Positions 1,002 through 17,092 are shown, numbered from the stretch's first letter. The stretch is 17,092 nt of DNA from a bacterium (GCA_024224155.1 JAAENP010000289.1:1-17092), one strand, 5' to 3'. The notes: a model not told the origin generated them from the letters alone. Translations and numbers: made by a program.

Positions 1002-1187
1002 TCAATCGATGACGGAGCGCCGCAGAACCTCGAGCACCCGGACAAGAACGGCCTTGCGCTCCTTCAACATCTCGCGAAACTCCAGGCGGTCGGTATCCGA
1101 GATCTCCATCCGTAGGTCGGAGAGATAGCTGTCGAGAACCGTACAGAGGATCTGCCGCTCATTGTCATCGAGGTCGAGCTGGATCAC
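1002..1187 (-). CDS. Small acidic, predicted all-helical hypothetical protein (61 aa)
   Basis: GTG start with a strong SD (GGAAGGAGG) 5 nt upstream on the minus strand. High GC3. Convergent with the crotonase gene across a 19-bp gap. No recognisable family. Confidence 0.55.
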   Translation of the reverse strand: MIQLDLDDNERQILCTVLDSYLSDLRMEISDTDRLEFREMLKERKAVLVRVLEVLRRSVID

Positions 1188-1290
1188 GTGAGCCTCCTTC
1201 CCCGGCTTTTCTACGATGCCCGCGCGTTTCGGGCAATACCCGCCGGGGTGGTGTCCTCCCGCCTTCCCCCGGCGCTATGATGATTGACCA

Positions 1291-1569
1291 ATGAAGGCAG
1301 TCGCAGAGATCCAGGTCGTTCCGATCGGCGTCGGCGTCTCCGTGCGGGCCCAGGTTCGCCGCGCCCAAGAGCTCATCCGTGAATCGGGCCTCGTCGTGCA
1401 GGAGCACTCCTTCGGCACCAATGTCGAGGGCGATCTCGAGGCCATCCTCGACGTCGTCGAGCTCATCCACGAGGTGCTGCACGCCGAGGGAGCTCCGCGG
1501 CTCTCGACTTCTATCAAGCTCGGTACGCGCACCGACAAACAGCCCGACCTCGCTTCGAAGCTGCGCTGA
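1291..1569 (+). CDS. YkoF/MTH1187 (UPF0045/DUF77) family small thiamine-binding-like protein
   Basis: 92 aa. The N-terminus MKAVAEIQVVPIGVGVSV and the overall size match the MTH1187/YkoF fold family. Confidence 0.7.
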   Translation: MKAVAEIQVVPIGVGVSVRAQVRRAQELIRESGLVVQEHSFGTNVEGDLEAILDVVELIHEVLHAEGAPRLSTSIKLGTRTDKQPDLASKLR

Positions 1570-1622
1570 CGGCATAGCCGGGGCCCCGGGGGTCCACGCG
1601 GTTGCGCCCGGGGATCCTCGGC

Positions 1623-1670
1623 TTGACACTTGGCGAGTCGAGGTGTACTATTGTTCTAGTGGACTAGTAC
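1623..1670 (+). promoter_or_regulatory. Sigma70-like promoter (TTGACA, 17 bp, TACTAT) overlapped by a perfect inverted repeat GTACTA-N14-TAGTAC. Putative autoregulatory operator of the downstream GntR operon.
   Basis: TTGACA at 1623-1628 and TACTAT at 1646-1651 with a 17-bp spacer. GTACTA at 1645-1650 pairs with TAGTAC at 1665-1670. This is a local AT-rich island in a GC-rich genome, about 40 bp upstream of the GntR start. Confidence 0.5.
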
Positions 1671-1705
1671 TTACGAACACTCAGGCCTTTCCAGGAAGTC
1701 ACCGT

Positions 1706-2083
1706 TTGAAGATCCAGATCGACACTAAGAGCGGCGTCCCCTTCTACCGGCAGATCATCGAGCAGGTCAAGATCGCCGTTGCCCGCGGCCTCCTGAGCCC
1801 TGGGCACCGCCTACCGACCGTCCGCCAGCTGGCGGTCGACCTCGCCGTCAACCCCAATACCGTGGTTCGCGCTTACCGGGAGCTCGAGATCGAGCGGGTA
1901 ATAGACACTCAGCAGGGCTCGGGCACCTTTGTCGGCAAAGAGCGCCCTGAGATCGACGATCTCGAGCGCCGCCGAATGCTCGACCAGATTCTCACCGAAC
2001 TGCTGGCCCGCGCCTCGTCTTACGGCTTCTCGCCCGAGGATGTCTTCGAGGGCCTGCGCCAGCGCAAGGAGGAACCGTCATGA
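1706..2083 (+). CDS. GntR-family transcriptional regulator, YtrA-like short subfamily (about 126 aa)
   Basis: TTG start gives (M)KIQIDTKSGVPFYRQIIEQ..., which parallels the YtrA MIQID N-terminus. The winged HTH is LPTVRQLAVDLAVNPNTVVRAYRELE, followed by a short two-helix C-terminal region. An AGGAAG SD lies 8 nt upstream. The stop overlaps the next start (ATGA). Confidence 0.85.
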   Translation: MKIQIDTKSGVPFYRQIIEQVKIAVARGLLSPGHRLPTVRQLAVDLAVNPNTVVRAYRELEIERVIDTQQGSGTFVGKERPEIDDLERRRMLDQILTELLARASSYGFSPEDVFEGLRQRKEEPS

Positions 2084-3228
2084 CCCCAAAAACCACCGGC
2101 TCCGAATTAGGCAAGGCCCTCTGGGCCCGCTCGCTCGAGAGGTTCGCCACCACGGCGCGCGCGGACCTCCGGTTCGCCCCGCTCAACGTCTTCCTGCTCG
2201 TCGTGATCTTCGCGTTCGGCCTGGCGGTCCACCTGAGTCTCTACCCGTTTACGGTCGATGCCGTCGCCCTCTGTCTCGGCTCGGCTTTGGTCCTCGCCAT
2301 CTGTATCAGGACGGCTCAGGTCTGGGAGGCGGTGGTCATCTTGGGCACGGCCGACTGCCTGCTGATCTACCTCAGGCTCCGACCCGACAGCGAGGTGCTG
2401 CTGGTGACCGTGGTGCTGGCGCTGCTGATCGCGCCCTCCGTGCAGATCGCCTATCAATGGGAGAAGGCCGTGGTCCTGCGCTTCGGACGCTTTCGCGGCC
2501 TTCGCTCCTCTGGACTCTTTCTGATCTTCCCGGTGATCGACAAAGTGGCCCAGTTCGTCGATCAGCGAATCCGGGTCAGTGACTTCTCCGCCGAGACCAC
2601 TCTCACTGCCGACACCGTCCCGGTCAACGTCGACGCCATCGCATTCTGGATGGTCTGGGACGCCGAGAAGTCCGTCCTCGAGGTGGAGCACTACGCCAAA
2701 GCCGTCATCCTGTCGGCGCAGACCGCGTTGCGCAACGCCATCGGCAAGCACGATCTGGCCGAGCTTCTCTCGGAGCGCGACCGGTTGGGCGGCGAGATCC
2801 AGGCAGTTCTCGACGACAAGACCAGCGCCTGGGGAATCACTACGCAGGCGGTGGAGATCCGCGACATCATCATTCCCAAGGGCCTCGAGGACGCCATGTC
2901 ACGCCAGGCGCAGGCCGAACGTGAGCGCCAGAGCCGCATCATCCTGGGCACCGCCGAAACCGAGATCGCCGAGAAGTTCGCCCGCGCGTCCGAGCACTAC
3001 CGCGACAACCCGGTTGCGCTCCATCTGCGGGCGATGAACATGGTCTACGAAGGGCTGCGACAGAAGGGCTCGATGATCATCGTCCCCTCCACCGCCGTCG
3101 AGACTATGGGCCTCGGAGCTCTTGGTGGGCTGACCGCCTTCGACCACGGCGCGCCCAAGGAGAGCGCCCAGACAACGGAGCCATCCGGGCTTCCCGAAGG
3201 TGTCTCGGCAGAGGGCGGTGAGTCGTGA
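2080..3228 (+). CDS. SPFH/band-7 (stomatin/prohibitin-like) membrane protein with an extended N-terminal multi-TM region
   Basis: AAGGAGG SD 7 nt upstream. About four N-terminal hydrophobic helices come before the SPFH core (VVLRFGRF...IFPVIDKV...VDAIAFW...LRNAIGKHDLAELLSERD...AQAERERQ). A glycine-rich acidic tail follows. Confidence 0.85.
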   Translation: MTPKTTGSELGKALWARSLERFATTARADLRFAPLNVFLLVVIFAFGLAVHLSLYPFTVDAVALCLGSALVLAICIRTAQVWEAVVILGTADCLLIYLRLRPDSEVLLVTVVLALLIAPSVQIAYQWEKAVVLRFGRFRGLRSSGLFLIFPVIDKVAQFVDQRIRVSDFSAETTLTADTVPVNVDAIAFWMVWDAEKSVLEVEHYAKAVILSAQTALRNAIGKHDLAELLSERDRLGGEIQAVLDDKTSAWGITTQAVEIRDIIIPKGLEDAMSRQAQAERERQSRIILGTAETEIAEKFARASEHYRDNPVALHLRAMNMVYEGLRQKGSMIIVPSTAVETMGLGALGGLTAFDHGAPKESAQTTEPSGLPEGVSAEGGES

Positions 3229-3752
3229 GCCGCTCTCTCGTCAACGCTGCCTCAGACAAGGGGCTCGTTCACTCGCGCACCTCCTCACCGGCACGGACTC
3301 GCTCAGATCCCAACAAGCCGTGGCGACTCGCATGGCTCTTGCTGACCATAGCCCTGGCGGCGCACGTGCTCGACGAAGCCCTGACCGACTTTCTTTCGGT
3401 CTACAACCCCGCGGTCGCGACTCTTCGGGACACCGTGCCCTGGTTGGCTCTCCCCAGCTTTAGCTTCGGCGCGTGGATCACCGGTCTCGGAATCGGAATT
3501 CTCGTGCTGGCGGCGCTCACGCCCCTTGCTCGCGGCGACAGGCCTTGGATGCGGCGCCTGTCGTACGTCTACGGAATCATCATGACGCTGAACGGCCTGG
3601 GTCATATGGGCGCCTCGTTGGTGCTGGGCCGCTGGATGCCCGGCGTCGTCTCCTCGCCGTTTTTGCTGGCGGCCGCGCTCTTCCTGCTCGTGAGCGTGCC
3701 GGAGCGGCCACAGCCCGCGACGCCCGTCGATCGGGAGAGCTCGGGTCGATGA
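3225..3752 (+). CDS. Integral membrane protein, HXXEE-like (AAHVLDEAL motif), 175 aa
   Basis: GTG start overlapping the upstream stop (GTGA). Four or five hydrophobic helices. An H-x-x-D-E motif sits at the start of the first helix. The family assignment is tentative. Confidence 0.55.
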   Translation: MSRSLVNAASDKGLVHSRTSSPARTRSDPNKPWRLAWLLLTIALAAHVLDEALTDFLSVYNPAVATLRDTVPWLALPSFSFGAWITGLGIGILVLAALTPLARGDRPWMRRLSYVYGIIMTLNGLGHMGASLVLGRWMPGVVSSPFLLAAALFLLVSVPERPQPATPVDRESSGR

Positions 3753-5266
3753 CCAGGGTCCGCTGGTGGCCTGCGGCGGTCATTCTCACTCTGGTGACGA
3801 TTCGCCTGGCCGTTATCTGGCTCGGCGACGCGCCCAGCACCCAGGCGCGCGTGGTGCCCACGCTCAAGGTTATGGTCCTCGCCGCCGCCCTGTTCTTCAT
3901 GTGGGCGCTACTGTTTTCGCGGTTGAAGGGCCGCACTCGGTTGGTCATCCTGCTGGTGGTGCTCCTTGCCGGCGGCGTTCTGGGGTCCACGGTCCGGATT
4001 ACTGGCGTCAGCGGCAACGTGGTGCCCATCCTGGCTTGGCGCTGGGCCGGCGACCAGGCTCTCGAGGATCCCCTTGGACCGGTCTTGGTCACCGACCGAA
4101 TCTCCCTCCTGGGGGACTATCCACAGTTCTACGGCCCGCGGCGCGATGCCACGCTCCCGGGTCCGCGCCTGGCCCGAGACTGGCGGTCGAGCCCGCCGCG
4201 CCAGCTCTGGCGTCGAGACGTGGGTGAAGCCTGGTCGGCCTTTGCCGTCGTCGGTTCTGCGGCGATTACCCAGGAGCAGCGCGGCGAAGAGGAAGTTGTG
4301 GTTCGCTATGACCTGGAGTCCGGCCGACAGGTTTGGGTTCATGCCGACCGCACGCGGTTGGAGACGACCGTCGGTGGCAGAGGCCCCAGGGCGACGCCGA
4401 CGATCGCCGAAGGCCGTGTCTACTCCCTGGGCGCGACCGGCATCCTCAACTGTCTCGATCTCGAAAGCGGTGACCTCATTTGGTCGCGCGACCTAGTCGA
4501 CGATAATCAGGCGCGTCTCGCCGACTACGGGATGCCGTCGTCCCCGTTGCTGGTCGACGATCTCGTGGTCGTCCAGTTGGCGCGGGTGGGCAGCTCCCTG
4601 GTTGCCTACCGCCGGACCGACGGCGAGCCGGTCTGGCGGGCGGGCCAGGACTCGGGAAGCTACAGCTCGCCGATACTGGCCACGGTGGCCGGGATCAGGC
4701 AGCTTGTGATCGTCAACCAAAGAAGCATCGCCGGCCATCTGCCCGAAAGCGGCGAAATGCTCTGGCGCGAGGAATGGCTCCATGCGGGCGAAAAGGTCAC
4801 GCCACCCCTGCTCCTCGGTGACGATCGACTCTTGATCTCGGCGGGCTACGGAGCGGGCAGTCGCCTCTTGCGCCTCCGTGCAGACGGGAGGGGCCTGGCC
4901 ATCGAGGAGCTGTGGAATAGCCTCCGCTTGAAGTCCAAGTTCGCCTCCATGGTGCTCCACGAGGGCACGGTCTACGGGCTCGACGACGGCATCCTCACCG
5001 CTCTCGACCCCGAAAGCGGCGAGCGGCTCTGGAAACGCGGGCGGTACGGTCACGGTCAGATGATCCTGGTCGGCGACCTTTTGTTGATCCAGTCGGAAAA
5101 GGGCGATGTGGCATTGGTCGAACCGACGCCGCAGGAGCATCGCGAGCTCGCGCGCTTCGAAGCGCTGAGCGGCAAGACCTGGAACCCACCTGCGCTTGCC
5201 GGTCGCCACCTGCTGGTCCGCAACAATCGGGAGGCGGCCTGCTACGAGCTCCCGGTCGAGTCCTGA
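3749..5266 (+). CDS. PQQ-like beta-propeller repeat protein (BamB/quinoprotein-like fold) with three N-terminal TM helices, about 505 aa
   Basis: ATG overlapping the upstream stop (ATGA) gives MTRVRWWPAAVILTLV.... Repeated W/G-containing blades are visible (GRQVWVH, GDLIWSRDL, GEPVWRAG, GEMLWREE, GERLWKRG). The track ORF begins at 3473, but that 5' part overlaps the previous gene in another frame. Confidence 0.7.
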   Translation: MTRVRWWPAAVILTLVTIRLAVIWLGDAPSTQARVVPTLKVMVLAAALFFMWALLFSRLKGRTRLVILLVVLLAGGVLGSTVRITGVSGNVVPILAWRWAGDQALEDPLGPVLVTDRISLLGDYPQFYGPRRDATLPGPRLARDWRSSPPRQLWRRDVGEAWSAFAVVGSAAITQEQRGEEEVVVRYDLESGRQVWVHADRTRLETTVGGRGPRATPTIAEGRVYSLGATGILNCLDLESGDLIWSRDLVDDNQARLADYGMPSSPLLVDDLVVVQLARVGSSLVAYRRTDGEPVWRAGQDSGSYSSPILATVAGIRQLVIVNQRSIAGHLPESGEMLWREEWLHAGEKVTPPLLLGDDRLLISAGYGAGSRLLRLRADGRGLAIEELWNSLRLKSKFASMVLHEGTVYGLDDGILTALDPESGERLWKRGRYGHGQMILVGDLLLIQSEKGDVALVEPTPQEHRELARFEALSGKTWNPPALAGRHLLVRNNREAACYELPVES

Positions 5267-5566
5267 GTCTTCTTCCTGTCTAGTTGCGGGCCTTCTTCCC
5301 TGATGCGATCGAGCGAAGCAACAGAGTAGGTGGCGGCTCCAGCCCACCCCGTCGAGTGTTGACTGGCGTAGGCCCGGTCGGGAACTTGCATACCAGAGGC
5401 AGTGGCCGGGGAGCGCCTCCGATTGAGCGCAACCGAAATGTGCGGGATCACCGGCCCTCTCGACGAGCGCGGTGGTCTGAATCGGGGCCACATCTCTGGG
5501 GCTCTCTCCGAGTCAGGTGAGTAGGCGCCTTTGAGCAATTGACTCGTCCTTGGAAAGGAGAGGACC

Positions 5567-6046
5567 ATGAACCGACTTGGAATCGTCAGCTGCATCGCCT
5601 TCGCGCTCGTGTCGCTCCCCGCAACGATCGCCACGGCCGGCCACCTTCCCCTCGATGCCGTCGGCGCCCTGCACCAGTATTGCGCCGACCAGAGCTTCAC
5701 GCCCCATAAGAACCTGATCGTCATGCGGCAGGTGATGATGACCGATGAGCTCGCCACCTTCGGCGGGACCCTCTTCGCGGGCATCTACACGCCGCAAGTT
5801 CCGCCCTCCGGCGACCCCGGAAGGATTACCGTGCGGGTCAGGGTGAGAAGAGCGGACGGGAGCCGGGAGAAGCTCGGGAAGATGGTCGCGCACCAAGGCG
5901 CTGATGGCGTCGCCGAGGCCGAGATGTATCTTCCCGTCGCCATCCGCGAGGGAGACACTGTCCTCTGGAGATGGCGCTTCCGAAACTTCGCCAACCTCGG
6001 CGCCGACGAGTGCTTCATGTTGATCGGCGCAACGGTCAGACCGTAA
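5567..6046 (+). CDS. Secreted hypothetical protein (159 aa) with an N-terminal signal peptide
   Basis: AGGAGAGG SD 4-5 nt upstream. Signal-peptide-like N-terminus MNRLGIVSCIAFALVSLPATIATA. High GC3. No family recognised. Confidence 0.6.
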   Translation: MNRLGIVSCIAFALVSLPATIATAGHLPLDAVGALHQYCADQSFTPHKNLIVMRQVMMTDELATFGGTLFAGIYTPQVPPSGDPGRITVRVRVRRADGSREKLGKMVAHQGADGVAEAEMYLPVAIREGDTVLWRWRFRNFANLGADECFMLIGATVRP

Positions 6047-6082: not shown

Positions 6083-7579
6083 TTATCGATCGCGCCGCGG
6101 CTGCGGATCCAGGGGCTCGAGCGTCCGCCCGGCCAGTGCCGGATGGTGCGGCGGGATATGGGTGGCTCGAAACACGGAGTACGGCGGATCGCCGGCCGGA
6201 TTCGGCGCATTGCCGGAGTAAGGATTCAGATAGCTCCAGACGATGTCGCCTTCCCGAGTGACCTCGAAGAAACGACCGTCGGGACCGGAACAGATCAGCG
6301 TGTTGCCATTCATCAACCGCTGGGCGCCGGAGATGAAGTCGGCATAGAAGGACTCCGGGGGCTCTGCCGTGTACTGCCAGACCGGCCCCTCCGGAGGAAA
6401 CGCGCCTCCCGGGTGGCGCCGGTAGCGCCCGTCGGCGTCGACCGGCGGGGCGATCTCGAGCACCGAGGAGTAGCCGTCACCTGGTCGGCCGGCACCGTTG
6501 TTGAACACCAGCAGGTTGCCGGCTCCAGGATGGCCCGGCGGGATCCAGCTCGCGTCATGCTGCGCGAAGAGCTGCCGATCCTCGTGGGTGCCCCCGTCGA
6601 AGACCTGGGGATTGCCCCAGCGGTACAGAAGGTCCCCACCTCGGCCGGCGCGACCGCCGGTGTGACCGGACGCCTCGCGCGTGCTGGTGGAGTGGTCGAG
6701 GATCCAGATCTCGCTGTATTGATTGACGCTGAGGAGGATCTGATCGAGCCGAAGGTTGTAGGCAATCGAGTTGGTGTGGACGAAATCGGCGGCCGCGTCC
6801 GCCAGGGTGCCGTCCCGGCCTAGGTAGCCCAGCGCCTTCAGACGGCTCAGCAGTGCCTCACTGGGCCGCTCCGGACCCCGACCGGCATTGAGATCGACGA
6901 GCCCGGGGTGCTCACTCAATCTGCCGAAGTTGGCCAAGGCGGGGTCATGGTCCTGGATCAGGTGATCCCAAAGGTGCCACTCCCAGACGACTCGAGCGTC
7001 GTCGGGCGGCCGGGGCTCGACCTCCAGCACCGCATCCGGCCAAAGCCCGCCGAGGCCCAGAAGATCGGACCGTCGTCCCGCCCGCCGGGCCTCGCCGGGA
7101 CTCTTGTTCTCCCAGACGATGAGCAGCACATTGCCGTTCGGCAGCGGTTCAATATCGTGGTGCTGCACCCGGCCCGCGCTCGCCGCCACCCAGTCCCACA
7201 CCAACTCGCCGTCCCAGTCGAACTCTTGGAGCCGCCCCCCCTGGCCACCGCCCCGGAAGGGCACGCCCGGGTGCCGCGCCGTGCGCAGTAGATGGCCGTT
7301 GTTGAGCAGATAGACCGAGACCCCGGGCGGCAGTTCGCTCTCCCAGGTGTGCACCGCCCGCCCCTGCTTGTCCACCAGGTAGGTGACGGTCGACAAGAGC
7401 GGCGAGAAGAGAACGTAGCCGTCCGCCGCCCGGCTGTCGAGCTCTCGAGCATCGAGCAAGCCGATCCCTCGCACGCGCTCCACCTTACCGGTGTCGTCGC
7501 GTCCGGGCGCACATCCGAGGCCTGTCGCCGCTAGGCATGCCAACAAGAGTCCGGGGATGACGCGGCTGAACGGCCTCAA
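6083..7579 (-). CDS. Arylsulfotransferase (ASST) family beta-propeller lipoprotein
   Basis: TTG start with a GGAG SD. Lipobox LLACLAATGLGC. Propeller motifs resemble the ASST family (VQHHD, HTNSIAYN, WEWHLWDHL, LVFNNG, MNGNTLI). It lies 20 bp downstream of the hydrolase gene on the same strand. Confidence 0.6.
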   Translation of the reverse strand: MRPFSRVIPGLLLACLAATGLGCAPGRDDTGKVERVRGIGLLDARELDSRAADGYVLFSPLLSTVTYLVDKQGRAVHTWESELPPGVSVYLLNNGHLLRTARHPGVPFRGGGQGGRLQEFDWDGELVWDWVAASAGRVQHHDIEPLPNGNVLLIVWENKSPGEARRAGRRSDLLGLGGLWPDAVLEVEPRPPDDARVVWEWHLWDHLIQDHDPALANFGRLSEHPGLVDLNAGRGPERPSEALLSRLKALGYLGRDGTLADAAADFVHTNSIAYNLRLDQILLSVNQYSEIWILDHSTSTREASGHTGGRAGRGGDLLYRWGNPQVFDGGTHEDRQLFAQHDASWIPPGHPGAGNLLVFNNGAGRPGDGYSSVLEIAPPVDADGRYRRHPGGAFPPEGPVWQYTAEPPESFYADFISGAQRLMNGNTLICSGPDGRFFEVTREGDIVWSYLNPYSGNAPNPAGDPPYSVFRATHIPPHHPALAGRTLEPLDPQPRRDR

Positions 7580-7599
7580 GCCCGCTCCTCCCGGAGTCG

Positions 7600-9033
7600 C
7601 TACTTCACCACGACCTTCTTGCCGACCTTGAGGTTGTTCTCACGGTCGAGATCGTAGTTGCTCTTGTCCTGATCGGCGACGGTCACCAGATAGTACGTGC
7701 CGGGCGGCACGTCCTCCGGCACGGCGGCCTTGAGCCGCGCACCCTTCTTCTTCCCCGCCGCGAGACCGTTGACTTTCGCCTTTCCCAACCACCAGGCGCT
7801 CTGATCGAGGGTTTTCTCGGGCGCCAGATAGAAATCCACCGAGGTGGCGAGCGACCGGTCGGGGCTGGCATTCTTCAACTTCGCCACCAGGCGCAGAGTC
7901 TCGCCCGGGGCGACACGGCGCGGCTTGGCCTTGGCACGCAAGGTTCGCAGGTCGATGATCTCTCTTCCGGTCAGAATGATCTCGAGAAGCGGTGCGGTCT
8001 CGAGAATGTCCAGGTCTCCGCCGGCCGGAACGTCGACCCCGCACGCCGCGACGATCTCGGCGTCCGGGAGCACCAGGATCGCTTGGCCGCCGTAGCCGCT
8101 GGCGGCGTAGCCCCAAAGCGGCCTCAGCCGAGGATCATGCAAGAAGAGCTGAAAGAACTCCGGTTCGTACGTCCACCACATGTAGCCGTACCCGCGCCCG
8201 ACCGCCTCGCTTTGAGAGTACGCCCGGGTGCTCTCCGCGACCCACTCCTCGGGGATGATCTGACGATCGCCCCAGCGGCCGTTCTGCAGGAAGAGCTGGC
8301 CGAAGCGAGCCCGGTCTCGAGTCGTCATCCTGAAGGTGTAGCAGGGGTGCTCCGAGAACGGCTCGTAGGCGTAGTGGCAGGTCACCGGCGTGAAGTCCTG
8401 CATGCCGATGTGGCGGCCGATCCTGTTCTGAAACTCCTCGAAGATATCGACGCCAGTCTCCTGCCGGAATATCGTGCCGAGGGCGTTGAAGTCCCAGTTG
8501 TTGTAGTACCAAAAGGTGTCGGGCGGATGCGAGCCCCGAGGCGGACGCGCAGCCTTCATCTCCGGCGCTTCACAGGCCGCCTCGATGTAGATGCCGGATC
8601 TCGCTTTGATGAGATGGCGCACCTTCGCTTGCTTCTCGGCCGGGGTCAATGCCGTCGAGTCGTCGATGTCGAGCTCCTCCAAGGTCATGTCGAGATCGAT
8701 GTTGCCGTTGGCGACGTGGATGCCGTACAGAGCGCTCAAGAAGCTCTTGCGCATCGAGTGACACCAGAACGGCGAGGTCTCGCGCCCGAAGCTCGCCAGG
8801 ATCTTGCCCTTGAAGACCATGACGAAGGCCCCGATCGGGGCATCGGGCAGGCCCTGCCAATGCTGCTCGGCGGCCGCGATTGCTGCCGACGAGAAACCCG
8901 CTTCTTCCGGACTCCCCCACCTCTCCCAATCTCCATCGGCAGCCTCGGCGGCAGACGAATGGAGCGCGATCGGCCCGATCAGCGTGGCCGCGGTGAGGAT
9001 CGCGGCGATATGAACTCGGCGCTGTTTGCGCAT
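7600..9033 (-). CDS. Beta-lactamase-fold serine hydrolase (S-x-x-K motif SMRK) with a C-terminal CARDB-like beta-sandwich domain, secreted
   Basis: ATG with a GGAGGGG SD gives MRKQRRVHIAAILTAATLIGPIALHSSAAEA, a signal peptide. The motif FWCHSMRKSF matches the class C / esterase family. The C-terminal roughly 100 aa (PGETLRLVAKLKNASPDRS...GTYYLVTVADQDKSNYDLDRENN) look like a CARDB domain. The track ORF extends to 9117 but lacks an RBS there. Confidence 0.7.
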   Translation of the reverse strand: MRKQRRVHIAAILTAATLIGPIALHSSAAEAADGDWERWGSPEEAGFSSAAIAAAEQHWQGLPDAPIGAFVMVFKGKILASFGRETSPFWCHSMRKSFLSALYGIHVANGNIDLDMTLEELDIDDSTALTPAEKQAKVRHLIKARSGIYIEAACEAPEMKAARPPRGSHPPDTFWYYNNWDFNALGTIFRQETGVDIFEEFQNRIGRHIGMQDFTPVTCHYAYEPFSEHPCYTFRMTTRDRARFGQLFLQNGRWGDRQIIPEEWVAESTRAYSQSEAVGRGYGYMWWTYEPEFFQLFLHDPRLRPLWGYAASGYGGQAILVLPDAEIVAACGVDVPAGGDLDILETAPLLEIILTGREIIDLRTLRAKAKPRRVAPGETLRLVAKLKNASPDRSLATSVDFYLAPEKTLDQSAWWLGKAKVNGLAAGKKKGARLKAAVPEDVPPGTYYLVTVADQDKSNYDLDRENNLKVGKKVVVK

Positions 9034-9138
9034 GTGCCCCTCCTTGTCTGGAGACGCGACATTGGCTGCGATAGTCCGCAAGGGCACGCCGAAGTCGCTG
9101 CTGGACGGCCTCTGCATGGTTTCAACGAGCCAGATCGG

Positions 9139-9507
9139 CTAGATGAGGTGGACGATCTCTCTTTTGCCGGACTCTCCCTGCACTACGTAGGTCGATAGGT
9201 GGACCCGAGTCGCCTTGCCCGAGGCGCTGCGGAAGAGCGTCTCGGCCTCGCCAATCGGGCGAAGGAGCATCTGCTCTCGGTTGACCGGCTCTTCTTGCGG
9301 CGCGATGTAAGGACAGTTCTGGGCGCAGAAGCGCCCGCCGGCCGGGTCTTGGCCCTTCAGCACCGTCCAGCAGCGCCGGCCGACAATGTCGGAGCTGCTG
9401 TAGCCCAAGCGGTTCGTAGCCGCCTCGTTCCAGGCGATCATCCTGCCTTCTGCATCTACCGCGAACGCGGCACCGCTCGCGGTCGCAACGACCTTCGCAC
9501 CGTTCAT
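9139..9507 (-). CDS. Standalone PAS-domain protein (122 aa)
   Basis: AGGAGA SD 4 nt upstream. PAS signature GAAFAVDAEGRMIAWNEAATNRLGYSSSDIVGRRCWTV. Three cysteines cluster in RRCW / RFCAQNCPY. Confidence 0.7.
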   Translation of the reverse strand: MNGAKVVATASGAAFAVDAEGRMIAWNEAATNRLGYSSSDIVGRRCWTVLKGQDPAGGRFCAQNCPYIAPQEEPVNREQMLLRPIGEAETLFRSASGKATRVHLSTYVVQGESGKREIVHLI

Positions 9508-9842
9508 GGTCTCTCCTTTCGCGCTTGCGATGGAGCATTACGTGCCGCCCCATCCGCCCTTCGGCAGCTCGGCGGTCTTGCGATCTTCGTGCGGGGAAAG
9601 CCGTCGCGGAGGAAGCGAGGACCCGCGGCTTTGCGCCCCTGGGTTTCCCCAGGTATGCCCTTATCGAGGCAATTCAGAATGTTACGCTCTCCTTGCGCGA
9701 GCTGCGCCACCCCAACGGGCAGGGGGGTCCAGCCAAAGAGAGGCGCGAATGAAGAAGGGGCTAGTTCGGGCGGCCTCCGGCTTGCGCCGGCGTGTGGCCT
9801 GCTGCATAGCCCGACCCAAGCGGGATCGCCACCCTGGGAAAA

Positions 9843-11678
9843 ATGCTCGCTTTCCCGTTTCGCACGGTGTCGCCGGAGCGTCCGTTCGTGGCTCTTTTCG
9901 CGGCGTGCGCGCTCTGCATGTCGATGCCTGTGACCACACCGGCCACCGCGCAGGTCTCCTTCACTCGTAACTACGTCGATCTGGCCTACGGCGGCAACGG
10001 CCGTCCGGGCTGGGTCCGAGCCGGCGACATGGACGGCGACGGTGACCTCGACATCGTCGCCGGTGGCGGCAACGCTCTTTTCATATATGAGAACGATCCG
10101 GCCACGCCCGGCTGGGCGCGCCACGGCACACTCGACGGTACGGGACAGATGGGCGCCAACGGCGCAGTGCTCTTCGACGTCGATGACGATAGCGATCTAG
10201 ACGTCGTTTGTGCCAAGTACAAGAGCGACCTCGGCTGGTGGGAAAACCCGGGCGGAGTCCTCACGACTGCGTCGTGGACCTTCCACAAGATCTCGACCGA
10301 GAGCCGCTACCTGCACGACGTCATCCGGGCCGACCTCGACGGGAACGGCGTTGCCGAGGAGTTCATCGCCAACCTGAACCAGGGCTACTGGAACTCTCGA
10401 ATAACGATCAAATGGCTGACGCCCGCGGCGGTTCCGACGGACCTGTGGCCGTCACACACGATCGAGGCCGATCGACTCGAGGGTGCTCCCCACGGACACG
10501 CCGGTCTCGACACGGGAGACGTTGACGCTGACGGCCACGTCGACGTCTCCTACGCCAACGGCTGGTACGAGGCACCCGACGATCCGGCCGGCTCGTGGAC
10601 CTGGTACCAGGTCACCGACATCTACGGCATCTCGAACTCCCTCGTCCGGGATATGGACAAGGACGGCAACCCGGACCTCGTGATGTCGGCCGGTCATCAC
10701 GGTACCGGCATCGCCTGGTTCGAGGCCCCAGACAACCCGCCGGGCCCGGCTGCCGGTGCGTGGCTCCGCCACGACGTCGACCCGGCTGTCCATCACCCGG
10801 AGTGCCTCGCCGTTGTCGACCTCTTCGGCGACGGCGATCCGGACATCATCTCCTGTGATCTCTTCTTCGGCGAAGACCCCGGCGAACCCGGCTGGGACGA
10901 GGAGGTCCACAACGTCTATGTGTACGAGAACCTGGGAGGGGCGAGCACCTGGACAAAGCACTCGATCGCACCCGATTCCTACCCCAGCCATCTGCTCCAG
11001 ATGGTGGATTTGAACGCGGACGGGCGTACCGACATCCTTAGCGAAGCGACGGGAACCTCGGTGGTGACCTACTATGAAAACACCACACCGGGCACCGTTT
11101 GCCAAGATGACCTTTACGAGCCCGACGACGTCTGCGCCACGGCTGGCACACTTCCCGGAGAGGTCTTCCAGACTCACGCCCTCTGCGATGAAGACTGGGT
11201 CGAGCTCGCCGTGACCGACGAGGCGACCTACGAGGTTCGGACCACCAACCTGTGGTCGGGGACCGATACACTCATCGAGCTCTACGGCCAGGCGTGCAGT
11301 GACTACGTGTCGAGCGACGACGACTCCGGACCAGGCGTGAGCTCGCTGCTGGTCTGGGCGGCGACGTTCTCCGGCACCTACCGGGCGCGAGTACTCGCCG
11401 CAGGTGGCAACTACGCCGCAGGCAACGCCTACGACCTTGTCTACGAGTGCATTCAGGATTGCGGTCTTTGCACCGGGCTCGACCACCTCATTCTTTCCAC
11501 CGGCACGGTTGTAGGCGTTGTCGTCGAGGAGGCCTGCCAGACGATCACCGCCGGGTCCGACTATGGTGTGGGCCCCACCGGAGACCTCACCCTCCGCGCC
11601 GGCGACCTGGTGACCCTCAGCGAGGGTTTCTCGGCGAGCGGCGAGCTCACGATCGAGCTCGACCTCTCCCTTCGTTGA
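9843..11678 (+). CDS. Secreted FG-GAP/VCBS beta-propeller protein with a PPC (pre-peptidase C-terminal) domain, then a conserved C-terminal tail of about 65 aa
   Basis: Signal peptide (h-region FVALFAACALCM, then ATA-Q). Many DxDGDGxxD FG-GAP calcium-binding blades. PPC-like region YEPDDVCATAGTL...TYEVRTT...GTYRARV. The tail CIQDCGLC...ACQTITAG...LRAGDLVTLSEGFS is homologous to the C-terminus of the next gene. Confidence 0.8.
   Translation: MLAFPFRTVSPERPFVALFAACALCMSMPVTTPATAQVSFTRNYVDLAYGGNGRPGWVRAGDMDGDGDLDIVAGGGNALFIYENDPATPGWARHGTLDGTGQMGANGAVLFDVDDDSDLDVVCAKYKSDLGWWENPGGVLTTASWTFHKISTESRYLHDVIRADLDGNGVAEEFIANLNQGYWNSRITIKWLTPAAVPTDLWPSHTIEADRLEGAPHGHAGLDTGDVDADGHVDVSYANGWYEAPDDPAGSWTWYQVTDIYGISNSLVRDMDKDGNPDLVMSAGHHGTGIAWFEAPDNPPGPAAGAWLRHDVDPAVHHPECLAVVDLFGDGDPDIISCDLFFGEDPGEPGWDEEVHNVYVYENLGGASTWTKHSIAPDSYPSHLLQMVDLNADGRTDILSEATGTSVVTYYENTTPGTVCQDDLYEPDDVCATAGTLPGEVFQTHALCDEDWVELAVTDEATYEVRTTNLWSGTDTLIELYGQACSDYVSSDDDSGPGVSSLLVWAATFSGTYRARVLAAGGNYAAGNAYDLVYECIQDCGLCTGLDHLILSTGTVVGVVVEEACQTITAGSDYGVGPTGDLTLRAGDLVTLSEGFSASGELTIELDLSLR
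11448..11675 (+). other. Shared C-terminal domain, copy 1 (cysteine cluster, then AC...LRAG.LVTL..GFS)
   Basis: Aligns with residues encoded at 14967-15185 with a single 2-aa indel. AC, LRAG, LVTL and GFS are invariant. Confidence 0.6.
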
Positions 11679-11909
11679 CCGCGCGGCGCCAAACCGGAAA
11701 CCTATTCCGAGTTGGGAAAAAAAGGACCCTCAGAGACCGGCCAAGCGGCCTCGCGCAGCCGGCGACAAGCGATCTTTCCAAGCCCTAGGCGACCTTTTGG
11801 AGAAACCCTCTCGGATCTCTCGTTGGGCACAGTGCTTGCGTGTTGACTGTCCAGGTAGAAGCACGCCGAGCCGAGAGCGCGCGAGATGGGCCGCCCAAAG
11901 GAGGCTTCG

Positions 11910-14900
11910 ATGTCACGACATCCCGATTCTCCCTGCAACTCGCACTGGCATGACGCTCGACGGGCGCCGATCCAGCCGGTCCTGGCTCTCACTTTGCTGC
12001 TCTTTCACGGAGGGCTCGCTACCGAGGCTTCGCAGCTGGTTTCGTGGCGTGAAGTCTCTTCCGATCGGCCGAAGTCGACGGTCGACTCGGTCGGTCAGGG
12101 ACTCGAGCCGCTGGGGCTGGCGTCCGCCGACTTCGACGAGAACGGGGCGCCGGACCTGGTCGTTGCCTACGGCGGTGGCGACGAAGGCGCCGTCGCGCTC
12201 TATCGCGGCAACATCGACGCGCTCTTTCCTAACAGCCCGGGAGCTCGCCGGCGCCGCTCGAGCGACGGATGGACCGCCGCTCCCTTCGCGCCGGAGCCAC
12301 TCCTCGTAAGTGTGCCGCGGCCCTCGAGAGTTGCGGCGGGCGACTTCGACGCGGACGGACACGCCGACGCGCTGTTGAGCAGCGCGGACGGCAACCGGCT
12401 GATCCTCCTGGCGGGTGACGGACGGGGCGGGTTTCGGACTCCCGTGGAACGTCGCCTCCCGGGCCGCACTACCGCCTGGGCCACCGGCGAGATCGATCGA
12501 CGAGACGGCTTGCCGGACGTCGCCCTCGCCCTCAATCTCGAACAAGGACAGGGCTCACGGATTCTGGTGCTGAGCTCCCCCCAAGGAGCCTGGGCAACCG
12601 AGGGCGAGGCGATCGACTCCGCCCTACTCGCAGCCGACCTCGCGCTGGTCCGGATCGACCGTGACCCCCTGCCGGATCTGGTCATAGCCGGCGAGCGCGA
12701 GCTCCTGGTGCTGGCGGGGCGCGAGCGCTCAGCGGTCACCAACTCTCAGCCGCGCCGGGTCGTGACGTACCAGCCGCTGCCGGCGAAGATGATCGCACTC
12801 GCCACCGGGGATTTCCTGGGAGACCGGGCGCGCCGTGCCGAGATCGCGGCTGCACTGGACGACGGCCGGCTGCTCGTGATCGCCGATCGGCGCGCTCGTG
12901 AGACAACACGAACCGAAGGTGCGGGGCTCGGGAGCTCTGCGCCGTCGCCGGCCTTTGCCACCGGACTTGGGCTCGTTGAGCGGGATAATCTTCTCGACGG
13001 ACCTGCTTTCGACCCGGTTGGGCCGGTTTTGTTCGAGAGGATGGATCTAGGAGACCTGACCGCCGGCCGGCTCTCTTCGGACCACGCCACCAAGCTTTTC
13101 AGCGCGCGGGTTGCAGGGGGTTCGGCGGAGGATCTGCTCCTGCTGCCCGCAAGCGGCGCTGGTCTCGAGTCGATCTCCCTGCGCGCGACGGCCGCGGGCT
13201 CCGACCTGGCGCGGGCCGGGATCCTGGATTCGGCCATTGGACGCATCGTCGACCTTTTGCCGATGCGTCTCAATGCCGACGCGGTCCCCGACTTCGTCGC
13301 TCTGGAAGCCGGCCGAATCGCACCTAGGATCTTCGCTACCAACGGCCTCACCGCGCTGGCCGTCAACTCCACGGAGGACTCGGACGACGGCTCGTGCGAT
13401 CCGGCGCCGGGTGGCGACTGCACCCTGCGCGAGGCGATCAACGCCGCCAACTCTATGGCCGGCCTCGACACCATCGACTTCTCCGGGCTCTCGTCGGGCG
13501 ACCAGACCATCGCCGTCGGCGCGGCGCCGGACTTCCTTGGAGCGCTTCCCATCGTTACCGATCCACTGGTCCTCGACGGGACGACTCATCCCGACGGCCG
13601 GGTCGAGCTCGATGGCACGGCGGCTGGCCTGACCACCAACGGTCTTCAGATCAATGCCGGCATGTCGACCGTCCGCGGCTTCGTGATCAATCGTTTCAGC
13701 CCCTTCAGTGGCCTGGTGTTCTCGATCGGCGATGGCAATATCGCCGAAGGCAACCTCATCGGCACAGACGTCACCGGAATGCTCGATCTGGGCAATGGCG
13801 GTAACGGAGTGCTTCTGACCGAGAGTGCCGGCAACACGATCGGCGGTACCGCCGCGGCGGCCAGGAACGTGATCTCGGGCAACGAGTTTCCGGCCATCTC
13901 GCTCTCCGGTATCGGCGCGACCGGCAACACGGTTCAGGGGAACTTCGTCGGCACCGACGTCACCGGCGACGCGGCCCTGGGCAACACGACGAACAACCTT
14001 CAGATCATTCTCGGCGCCTCGAGCAACACGATCGGCGGCACGGCGGCAGGTGCCGGCAACGTGATCTCAGACAACCTCATGGCGGGCAATCCGGCCATCG
14101 CCGTGGTCGGAGACACCGGCGCCGGCGGCGGCACGCCCGTCGCGACGAGCGGCAACGTATTTCAGGGCAACCTGATCGGCACGGATCGCACCGGCACATT
14201 TGCCTTCGGCAACGCCAGCGTCGCTCTCTTCATCGCCAACAACGCCCCCGACAATACGATCGGCGGTAGCGCTCCGGGAGCGGGAAATGTGATCTCGGCG
14301 AGCGGCCTGGACGCGATACGGATCGGCAGTAGCACCACGACCGGAACCGCGATTGAGGGCAACCTCATCGGCACCGACCTGACGGGCAGCGCCGCCCTGG
14401 GAAACGGCAATCACGGCATCTTTCTCACGGTCTCGCCGAGCGGCACAACTATCGGCGGCGCGGCGGCCGGAAGTGGCAACCTCATCGCTTTCAACGCCCG
14501 CGACGGGATCTTCATCGATTCTGGCGTCGCCAACTCGGTCCAGGGCAACCGGATCTTCTCCAACGGCGAGCTGGCGATCGACCTCTGTGCCGACTTCGAA
14601 GCTGCCACGTCCAGCTGCCTGGACACGGTCGAGGTCACACCGAACGACGTTGACGACGCCGACGTCGGGGCCAACGACCTGCTGAACTTCCCCAGCCTCG
14701 ACCTGGTCCTCGCTGGGACCGCGACCGTCGAAGGTAGGCTCGACGGCCTGCCGAGCACGGATTTCACGTTGCGGTTCTATTCCAACATGAGTTGTGACTC
14801 CTCCGGGCACGGAGAGGCCGAGACCTTCCTGGGAGACGCGCTGGTGACGACCGATGCGACCGGCGGAGCGTCGTTCGCGGTGCCGCTGGGCGTGCCGCTC

Positions 14901-15188
14901 TCGCCGGGGGAACAGCTGGCGGCAACCGCCACCGATTCGGGCGGCAGCACTTCTGAGCTCTCCGCCTGCCGGACTTCCTGTGGGGCGGCGCCCGATCTCG
15001 TGCTCGAGAATCAGACCGTCTCGACGGAGCAGGAGTTCACGGCGTGTGATTCGATCCTGGCCTTCAATGGCTTCGTTGTCGATGCCCTCGTTGCGCTGCG
15101 TGCGGGCCGCCTTGTGACGCTCGGAGACGGGTTTTCGACGGGCGCCGGAGCTGCGCTGACGGTGGCCGTCGATCCACTCGTGCAATAG
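11910..15188 (+). CDS. Large secreted protein: N-terminal FG-GAP repeats, internal CSLREA-type motif (CTLREAINAAN), right-handed parallel beta-helix repeats (GNLIGTDxTG), an NDLLNFP motif region, and the shared C-terminal tail
   Basis: AAGGAGG SD 5 nt upstream of the ATG at 11910. The track start at 11886 has no RBS. A hydrophobic signal-like segment follows a roughly 20-aa n-region. Beta-helix coils of about 63 aa repeat at 13749, 13938, 14167 and 14356. The C-terminus is homologous to the preceding gene. Confidence 0.8.
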   Translation: MSRHPDSPCNSHWHDARRAPIQPVLALTLLLFHGGLATEASQLVSWREVSSDRPKSTVDSVGQGLEPLGLASADFDENGAPDLVVAYGGGDEGAVALYRGNIDALFPNSPGARRRRSSDGWTAAPFAPEPLLVSVPRPSRVAAGDFDADGHADALLSSADGNRLILLAGDGRGGFRTPVERRLPGRTTAWATGEIDRRDGLPDVALALNLEQGQGSRILVLSSPQGAWATEGEAIDSALLAADLALVRIDRDPLPDLVIAGERELLVLAGRERSAVTNSQPRRVVTYQPLPAKMIALATGDFLGDRARRAEIAAALDDGRLLVIADRRARETTRTEGAGLGSSAPSPAFATGLGLVERDNLLDGPAFDPVGPVLFERMDLGDLTAGRLSSDHATKLFSARVAGGSAEDLLLLPASGAGLESISLRATAAGSDLARAGILDSAIGRIVDLLPMRLNADAVPDFVALEAGRIAPRIFATNGLTALAVNSTEDSDDGSCDPAPGGDCTLREAINAANSMAGLDTIDFSGLSSGDQTIAVGAAPDFLGALPIVTDPLVLDGTTHPDGRVELDGTAAGLTTNGLQINAGMSTVRGFVINRFSPFSGLVFSIGDGNIAEGNLIGTDVTGMLDLGNGGNGVLLTESAGNTIGGTAAAARNVISGNEFPAISLSGIGATGNTVQGNFVGTDVTGDAALGNTTNNLQIILGASSNTIGGTAAGAGNVISDNLMAGNPAIAVVGDTGAGGGTPVATSGNVFQGNLIGTDRTGTFAFGNASVALFIANNAPDNTIGGSAPGAGNVISASGLDAIRIGSSTTTGTAIEGNLIGTDLTGSAALGNGNHGIFLTVSPSGTTIGGAAAGSGNLIAFNARDGIFIDSGVANSVQGNRIFSNGELAIDLCADFEAATSSCLDTVEVTPNDVDDADVGANDLLNFPSLDLVLAGTATVEGRLDGLPSTDFTLRFYSNMSCDSSGHGEAETFLGDALVTTDATGGASFAVPLGVPLSPGEQLAATATDSGGSTSELSACRTSCGAAPDLVLENQTVSTEQEFTACDSILAFNGFVVDALVALRAGRLVTLGDGFSTGAGAALTVAVDPLVQ
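14967..15185 (+). other. Shared C-terminal domain, copy 2
   Basis: CRTSCGAAPDLVLENQTVSTEQEFTACDSILAF...LRAGRLVTLGDGFSTGAGAALTV. Homologous to 11448-11675. Confidence 0.6.
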
Positions 15189-15237
15189 CGATCGCGTCGG
15201 ACGGTTGCTTTGAAGCGGCCAGGGCACCTCAATCGTC

Positions 15238-15259
15238 AGGAGTTCTACGTAGGACTCCT
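15238..15259. other. Near-perfect 22-bp palindrome AGGAGTTCTACGTAGGACTCCT (20 of 22 positions symmetric) between the large beta-helix gene and the subtilase gene
   Basis: Read directly. The core CTACGTAG is self-complementary and is flanked by AGGAGT/ACTCCT. No U-tract. An AT-rich patch GATAGATAG follows at 15285-15294. Confidence 0.3.
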
Positions 15260-15344
15260 ACCTACAGCGTGACGAGTGAATCGCTGATAGATAGCCGTCC
15301 GTCTATGAAGAAGGCTCCTACTGAGCGGCAAGGAGGTATTGCTC

Positions 15345-16958: not shown

Positions 16959-17092
16959 GCGCCTGGAAGAGCTCGAGAAACTTCGGCCAAACGTCGGGAT
17001 CACCCGGCTCCGGTGCCTGACAGCGGCGCTCGCGATACTCGTCACGGGCGCCGCGGCGGTGCGTAGTGAGCCCGGGACCGTCCGCTTTCGCC

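Follow-up and report, generated by a model that had tools for sequence, protein, structure and literature searches.

The Four-Gene Block

The stretch of DNA analysed here (the window) comprises 17,092 nucleotides of a bacterial assembly (GCA_024224155.1, JAAENP010000289.1:1-17092), and its positions 1706-5266 carry four co-directional open reading frames (ORFs), identified by reading the sequence and from the ORF list. This work deals with that block and, above all, with its first two genes, which encode a GntR regulator and a stomatin-like SPFH protein (slipin). The GntR gene lies on the plus strand at 1706-2083 (125 aa, TTG start, AGGAAG 8 nt upstream) and is followed on the same strand by the slipin gene at 2080-3228 (382 aa, ATG start, AAGGAGGA upstream), the gene of an HXXEE protein at 3225-3752 (175 aa, GTG start) and the gene of a PQQ-like propeller protein at 3749-5266 (505 aa, ATG start). 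Consecutive genes overlap by 4 nt each through the stop/start sequences ATGA (2080-2083), GTGA (3225-3228) and ATGA (3749-3752). An earlier reading of the sequence (the original prediction) had described these four genes and three overlaps, and the coordinates are exactly as claimed there.

All four ORFs are real genes. Their products reach Pfam bit scores of 59.1 (GntR, PF00392, cut-off 27), 112.6 (Band_7), 29.1 (HXXEE, PF13787, cut-off 25) and 96 (PQQ_2), the G+C content at third codon positions is 0.80-0.85 in each of the genes, as in the adjoining ones, and independent gene calls in two relatives, the loci L002 and L088, give identical boundaries. One promoter and a putative operator precede the block, in agreement with its predicted organisation as an operon, and the window scan detected no terminator-like site within the block or just after the propeller stop codon. 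The overlaps had also been read as a sign of stoichiometric co-production, which 4-nt overlaps do not imply; the slipin gene has a strong Shine-Dalgarno sequence of its own. Tight gene overlaps alone do not define a conserved functional unit.

A YtrA-Type Regulator

In the regulator, the PF00392 match covers residues 14-76, forming an N-terminal winged helix that is followed by a short C-terminal domain. The best solved relatives are YtrA-type proteins of 121-134 aa (4HAM, 3BY6, 3NEU, 4R1H and 6SBS, the last being YtrASa), with residues 11-121 aligning to the 125-aa 3NEU and residues 10-119 to the 128-aa 4R1H. By these matches and by its length, the regulator is assigned to the YtrA-type GntR proteins, as had been proposed. 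It scores below the NCBIfam equivalog cut-offs for Rv1152 (73.5 vs. 170) and PmtR (63.3 vs. 200).

The original prediction also drew attention to a YtrA-type gene standing before membrane proteins instead of an ABC exporter. The gene content agrees with this, the Pfam scan finding no ABC transporter gene in the operon, but YtrA-type regulators paired with membrane proteins rather than with ABC exporters are an already recognised subgroup (PMC6746942). How these regulators, which lack a ligand-binding domain, sense their signals is unsettled (PMC6746942).

A Stomatin with a Family-Specific N-Terminus

Residues 110-338 of the SPFH protein align to human stomatin (16-mer entries, ~3e-36) and residues 156-324 to PH stomatin (3BK6, 4e-40), while the match to QmcA reaches 3e-27. 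The homology spans the SPFH domain, the coiled coil and the C-terminal segment, and by this measure the protein is a true stomatin/slipin. From its homology to PH stomatin, human stomatin and QmcA, the window slipin is likely to form a membrane-attached ring or cage.

The N-terminal part is particular to the family. Hydropathy reveals four hydrophobic segments within residues 32-124, which bears out the multiple transmembrane (TM) segments that had been noticed in this region, and hydropathy combined with the positive-inside charge distribution predicts that both the N-terminus and the SPFH domain face the cytoplasm. The N-terminal 130 aa have no Pfam match at E-values up to 10 and no NfeD-like TM region, and the N-terminal domain found just 94 counterparts among 1.84 billion cluster representatives, the majority being fragmentary members of the same family. 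A nearly invariant motif, SLE-x-F-x4-RAD-x-RF-x-P-x-N, precedes TM1 (slipin residues 18-36, window 2131-2187) on the predicted cytoplasmic side, and a shorter echo of it, (W)(F/A)-N-P-I-S, stands before TM1 in the slipins of Parabacteroides. It is a candidate interaction site.

It could be argued that this stomatin is of the HflK/C-like or NfeD type and serves to gate a membrane protease such as FtsH, with GntR tuning the level of the slipin. SPFH cages enclose FtsH, sources annotate homologues of the slipin as 'regulator of protease activity HflC', entry 7VHP of the PDB is among its structure-database matches, and NCBIfam gives weak matches to HflK and HflC. These matches remain, however, far below the cut-offs (58.3 vs. 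159.4 for TIGR01933 and 35.7 vs. 134.4 for TIGR01932). The ORF list of the window contains a single SPFH gene and not a tandem paralogous K/C pair, and the SPFH domain is predicted to be cytoplasmic, whereas that of HflK/C is periplasmic. Furthermore, no FtsH or NfeD gene lies near the slipin in any context examined; for NfeD, whose absence had been pointed out before, this covers the window ORFs scanned and the neighbourhoods of eight annotated relatives. One Parabacteroides variant does carry a downstream lipoprotein with a weak aspartyl-protease motif, but the match is sub-threshold (E = 0.018). Control of a protease is thus a very unlikely role for this slipin, and the label 'HflC-like protease regulator' on GntR-linked slipins is unsupported.

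Promoter and Putative Operator

A sigma-70-type promoter lies on the plus strand upstream of the GntR gene (1623-1651), with TTGACA at 1623-1628, a 17-nt spacer and TACTAT at 1646-1651, and 1100-5700 holds no other sigma-70-like promoter. Nested inverted repeats at 1644-1679 (no strand assigned), reading TGTACTA-T-TGTTCTA-GTGGAC-TAGTACT-T-ACGAACA, cover the -10 box and the likely transcription start and constitute a putative GntR operator. This stretch has 42% G+C, compared with 64% in the genome. The pattern TGTWCTA-N6-TAGWAC occurs a single time in the window, at 1652-1670 and with 0 mismatches, when 0.07 matches are expected by chance.

The same elements are found upstream of related pairs in other genomes. 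Of 76 related upstream regions, 71 have TTGAC at the corresponding place, and the consensus of the 60 motif-anchored ones reads TTGACA-N16/17-ATTGTACTAtnnnACTAGaACAaTAGTnnaCTAGnAC, with the operator consensus ATTGTACTAtnnnACTAGaACAaTAG kept in these 60 loci. The consensus is a GT..AC-type palindrome, TGTACTA-N6-TAGaACA, with further half-sites, and it extends over the -10 box and the transcription start. The putative operator half-site TTGTACTA, which overlaps the promoter, is conserved across phyla and recurs in Bacteroidales. There, the upstream regions carry the palindrome TTGTACTAT-AAT-AATAGTACAA, with the same half-site, on a TAnnTTTG motif that we take to be the Bacteroides-type promoter. 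The same half-site on a different promoter motif suggests that the operator travels with the regulator, while the promoter has been adapted to the host.

In Archaea, YtrASa represses its own operon of ytrA and membrane protein genes through a semi-palindrome over the transcription start, with extra half-sites (PMC6746942). The putative operator layout of the window matches this experimentally shown one: GntR, whose binding is predicted here, is encoded by the first gene, and the conserved palindrome overlaps the -10 box and the transcription start.

Conservation of the GntR-Slipin Pair

The slipin has thousands of close homologues of equal length, the best 120 listed having 363-394 aa and identities of 74% or more. 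A scan of species-representative genomes provided 80 slipin loci (64-84% identical), of which 76 have upstream DNA, and a GntR homologue (56-82% identical) lies directly upstream of the slipin gene in all 76, two of the homologues being truncated. Pair loci span about 10 named phyla and are found in Gemmatimonadota, Acidobacteriota, Latescibacterota, Planctomycetota, Fibrobacteraceae, Myxococcota, Bipolaricaulota, Krumholzibacteriia and Eubacteriales; a Petrotogaceae locus has the slipin gene at a place without the upstream DNA for a GntR check. In 43/75 loci the genes of the pair overlap by 4 nt, and in most others they are at most 15 nt apart. Judged by these distances, translation of the two is coupled, or close to it, in most loci.

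The limits of the conserved unit are well marked. All-against-all blastn comparisons of the genome loci place the upstream edge of nucleotide homology at a median distance of 52 nt before the GntR start (95th percentile, 88 nt) and the downstream edge just short of the slipin stop, while the flanking genes are unrelated from locus to locus. These limits define a conserved unit of about 1.6 kb, made up of the promoter/operator, GntR and slipin. The GntR-slipin pair and its cis-elements have thereby been shown to persist together in many phyla and in changing genomic surroundings. The hosts of the pair range from bacteria of sediments to Parabacteroides of the human gut.

The original prediction treated the four genes as one module, of which only GntR and the SPFH gene proved to be kept (76/76 genome loci and 78/78 Bacteroidales loci, the latter described below). 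The co-occurrence that it had proposed looking for holds at every checkable locus in the case of the short GntR, but only in a sub-clade in the case of the propeller. In short, the original guess underrated by far the strength and breadth of the link between regulator and SPFH protein and much overrated that to the last two genes.

The Pair in Parabacteroides and Other Gut Bacteroidales

The best slipin match in a plasmid database led to Parabacteroides distasonis; plasmid slipins match the SPFH domain only and, Parabacteroides excepted, lack GntR. The P. distasonis GntR has 131 aa and is 49% identical to that of the window, C-terminal domain included. Its gene overlaps that of a 292-aa slipin, which shows 60% identity across 250 aa and carries two TM segments at its N-terminus. 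A metagenome scan with the Parabacteroides slipin provided 80 gut Bacteroidales loci, and all 78 with room for an upstream GntR gene have one directly upstream of the slipin gene. An exact look-up places the proteins of these gut loci in P. distasonis and P. goldsteinii, both of which are cultured.

Parabacteroides slipins are followed by genes for either a 305-aa lipoprotein or 6-bladed propeller lipoproteins, the latter from two different Pfam families. In P. distasonis, a DUF4934/DUF5128 propeller lipoprotein gene begins 12 nt after the slipin gene (pair and propeller at L098 2475-5003, NZ_OY725779.1). In the P. goldsteinii-type arrangement (L139 3558-5916), the propeller is of the TolB_like/BF3164 kind and its gene overlaps the slipin gene by 4 nt. 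The 305-aa lipoprotein, encoded after the slipin at L141 4929-5846 and L151 4920-5837, has DLG and DTG motifs and gives the sub-threshold match already mentioned, which is to Asp_protease_2. It may be a retropepsin-like exported protease beside a stomatin.

The HXXEE and Propeller Proteins

The motif that gives the HXXEE family its name reads H47-V-L-D50-E51 in the third protein of the block, and H47, D50 and E51 are invariant in 60 homologues. Its AlphaFold2 (AF2) model is a helical bundle with a predicted local distance difference test score (pLDDT) of 86.6; a Foldseek comparison with the PDB returned no match below E = 1, and the literature search found no paper on the function of HXXEE proteins.

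The fourth protein has TM segments at residues 8-26, 38-56 and 66-84 and no lipobox. On the basis of these three N-terminal segments, its propeller domain is predicted to be periplasmic. It shares PQQ_2-type beta-propeller repeats with BamB and the PQQ-dependent dehydrogenases but, as had been foreseen, it is unlike BamB, being held by three TM helices and scoring 49.6 against a cut-off of 285.2 with the BamB model TIGR03300. The PQQ-dehydrogenase models are not reached either (TIGR03075, 24.1 vs. 480; PF01011, 21.4 vs. 26.7). The usual partner of this propeller family is an SGL/Str_synth-like protein: homologues that are 58-61% identical are coupled by a 4-nt overlap to an SSL_N/SGL/Str_synth-type (strictosidine-synthase-like) propeller gene, as at L089 4919-7518 and L090 4919-7521, which show a conserved two-propeller pair distinct from the block.

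It might be supposed that the four proteins form an obligate envelope-stress or membrane-organisation complex, in which the slipin would scaffold the HXXEE and propeller proteins and the overlaps would set their ratios. The three 4-nt overlaps, the single promoter and the lack of an internal terminator fit this view, as does the gene order, which is kept in L002 (a 96% relative) and in L088, where the flanks differ from those of the window and L002. The four genes are therefore syntenic in relatives, and the recurrence of the block in close relatives, with other flanks in L088, indicates that the arrangement is genuine, though limited to this lineage. On several contigs, close relatives of the slipin occur with close relatives of the propeller or HXXEE protein, and HXXEE also follows the slipin in L059 and L060 (Gemmatimonadota) and in L069 (Acidobacteriota). 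In Parabacteroides, moreover, non-homologous propeller lipoproteins follow the slipin.

However, the vast majority of pair loci lack both HXXEE and the propeller. Within the 80 genome loci, HXXEE follows the slipin only in L002, L059, L060 and L069, and the propeller only in L002; propeller and slipin occur together on a contig only where the relative's slipin has 82% identity or more. In L097, whose slipin shows 85% identity, the order is GntR-slipin-HXXEE, and the propeller is missing. The propeller homologues coupled to the SGL-like gene have no slipin nearby, HXXEE homologues at 52-71% identity adjoin Fic, DinB or AIRS genes, and in GCA_947259925.1 the HXXEE and propeller homologues are on different contigs. 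Taken together, these data make an obligate four-protein complex unlikely.

Descent of the Pair

Median slipin identity is 73% for copies from one phylum and 67% for copies from different phyla, the between-phylum values ranging from a minimum of 57% to a maximum of 91%. The 91% pair consists of the copy in a closed Bipolaricaulota chromosome and copies from Gemmatimonadota. The Gemmatimonadota scaffold L034, from a metagenome-assembled genome, and the Bipolaricaulota locus L058 (CP070725.1) are 82% identical at the nucleotide level over 4.7 kb, a stretch that includes about 1.7 kb upstream and about 1.4 kb downstream of the pair. This likeness reflects either a larger transferred island or a taxonomic mislabel. 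By composition, the copy of the window cannot be told apart from its host.

The patchy distribution, the unrelated flanks and the lack of distant relatives of the N-terminal domain point to very strong purifying selection plus repeated horizontal transfer, with which these sequence patterns are more in keeping than with an ancient, universally inherited gene. Pure vertical descent was rejected in view of the patchy distribution, the unrelated flanks and the 91%-identical Bipolaricaulota/Gemmatimonadota pair. The nearest slipin neighbours are often, although not always, from the same phylum, which indicates that descent has been mixed.

In one copy, at L001 7129-9095 (the same locus as L049; Vicinamibacterales, OZ252219.1), GntR has been cut to 44 aa by an IS240-type transposase gene, and several further transposase and integrase genes surround the slipin gene.

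Such features could also be expected of a mobile selfish or defensive cassette of the toxin-antitoxin or abortive-infection kind, with GntR as the antidote or switch and the membrane protein as a permeabilising or arresting effector. The architecture resembles that of type II toxin-antitoxin systems, a small autorepressor coming first and being coupled to a downstream effector. The patchy cross-phylum distribution with unrelated flanks, the Bipolaricaulota chromosome copy 91% identical to those of Gemmatimonadota, the copy embedded among transposases and the N-terminal slipin domain without distant relatives would be in line with it as well. Nevertheless, none of the four proteins has a match in PADLOC-DB 2.0. 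The very strong purifying selection (57-94% identity, with long invariant runs) is unlike that of arms-race genes, and the frequent same-phylum neighbours speak against such a cassette, as does the same MgtC gene found upstream in 11 P. distasonis-type loci with identical slipin copies. The copy with the IS-truncated GntR has been retained in a complete chromosome, which is hard to reconcile with a lethal toxin left unneutralised, although loss of the promoter as well is possible. A toxin-antitoxin or abortive-infection cassette is accordingly improbable, to about the same degree as the protease-gating role. A phage-borne origin was left without support, as no match was found in phage records or IMG/VR viral contigs, a result that also speaks against a defensive cassette; a PHROGs search gave generic matches only.

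A Probable Self-Contained Autorepressed Module

The functional core of the block is probably a self-contained, autorepressed GntR-slipin module that is carried with its own promoter and operator. In the proposed mechanism, a GntR dimer bound to the palindromic operator would block RNA polymerase and keep the operon at a low level, and a membrane or envelope cue would relieve this repression. This cue may arrive through a peptide, a lipid or the membrane partner itself, since YtrA-type regulators have only a small dimerisation domain. Held in the membrane by four TM segments and with its SPFH domain in the cytoplasm, the slipin would assemble into a ring or cage and thus may organise or protect a patch of the inner membrane. 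In the lineage of the window, the HXXEE protein and the TM-anchored periplasmic propeller would have been added at the 3' end of the transcript as accessory envelope proteins, while other lineages have other exported proteins there, such as a DUF3352-like lipoprotein or the 6-bladed propeller lipoproteins.

Several points weigh against this proposal. The operator is putatively assigned to GntR by its position, its symmetry and its co-conservation with the regulator, and TGTACTA overlaps the -10 hexamer, so that the promoter alone could account for part of its conservation. The AF2 model of the slipin has a pLDDT of 47.5, obtained from a low-diversity alignment of 42 sequences, and is unusable; its oligomer and topology were therefore taken from homology and hydropathy. 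The recurrent theme of an accessory gene coding for an exported protein could be partly due to chance, propeller lipoproteins being abundant paralogue families in Bacteroidales. In addition, the block is kept in at least two flanking contexts, which makes a functional tie of HXXEE and the propeller to the slipin possible in the clade of the window.

A bolder version of the proposal, which we hold to be conceivable though doubtful, considers GntR-slipin as a hitherto unrecognised, self-contained membrane-state sensing circuit that has spread horizontally between phyla, in which the stomatin ring itself would control the repressor. The TM domain of the slipin and the cytoplasmic motif before TM1, in the form (R/W)-F-x-P-(L/I)-(N/S), would act on the repressor, and the ring would sequester or release GntR in a feedback analogous to that of PspA-PspF. 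The variable exported proteins encoded downstream would then be lineage-specific clients or outputs of the scaffold.

Relation to Known Systems

The autorepressed module can be compared with several known systems. Slipin-NfeD operons (P. horikoshii PH1511/PH1510 and E. coli QmcA-YbbJ) have homologous SPFH, coiled-coil and C-terminal segments. In contrast to them, the module lacks NfeD and has a dedicated repressor upstream, its slipin has four TM helices of a family-specific domain (two in Parabacteroides) instead of one hairpin, and its downstream partners are variable. In Psp-type circuits (PspA-PspF, and B. subtilis ydjFGHI with the SPFH protein YdjI), a membrane scaffold is co-encoded with its control and is induced by membrane damage. 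The concept is similar, but the regulator is non-homologous and there is no PspA/ESCRT-III protein, so that the analogy is functional speculation only.

The closest known relatives on the regulator side are the YtrASa-Saci_1850 operon of Sulfolobus acidocaldarius and the SCO3812 group of Streptomyces (PMC6746942). Common to them and the module are a winged-helix regulator of about 125 aa whose C-terminal domain is short, its position as the first gene of the operon with a membrane protein next, and a palindromic operator, a putative one in the module, with extra half-sites over the transcription start. The module differs in that the partner is a stomatin-type SPFH protein, whereas the Sulfolobus partners have no recognisable homology, and in that its pair, operator and coupling are conserved over about 10 bacterial phyla.

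The literature yielded no paper on a pairing of GntR with an SPFH protein or slipin, as would be expected from the earlier proposal that no described SPFH operon type matches the block. The only relevant paper was that on YtrASa (PMC6746942), and one Bacteroidetes paper names both GntR and slipin, in unrelated rows. Both parent kinds, the operons of a YtrA-type autorepressor with a membrane protein and the stomatin operons, are known; a widely conserved GntR-slipin module with its operator appears to be undescribed. What bacterial stomatins do is, to our knowledge, still largely unknown. The module joins a bacterial stomatin and a YtrA-type regulator with a sharply defined putative operator across many phyla, and its occurrence in cultured human-gut Parabacteroides makes the questions of the stomatin role and of YtrA-type sensing directly testable and tractable.

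Other Accessory Genes and the Rest of the Window

The genes after the slipin vary by lineage, and their products are usually exported or membrane proteins. The most frequent third gene of the module encodes a lipoprotein-like protein of about 520-640 aa, directly downstream of the slipin in some 16 of 78 loci (L008 7158-8729, L058 7208-9046, L068 7113-8927, L083 7198-8886 and about 12 more). Only the L068 lipoprotein reaches the Pfam cut-off for DUF3352, and three other scanned members have no Pfam match. In two loci of Phycisphaerae/Planctomycetota (L075 4918-5877 and L082 5066-5950), a membrane protein with two TM segments and a double DUF3592 domain is encoded between GntR and the slipin.

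The rest of the window (6083-17045) is rich in secreted or envelope proteins. The minus strand encodes an arylsulfotransferase-like propeller (6083-7579) and a beta-lactamase-fold protein with a CARDB domain (7600-9117), and two FG-GAP repeat proteins (9843-11678 and 11886-15188) and a subtilase (15339-16958) lie further along. Finally, a c-di-GMP-I-GGC riboswitch aptamer (RF03167; 65.2 bits vs. a gathering threshold of 59, E = 1e-13) is located on the minus strand at 9559-9668, just upstream of a minus-strand ORF at 9122-9553 that encodes 143 aa with no Pfam match.

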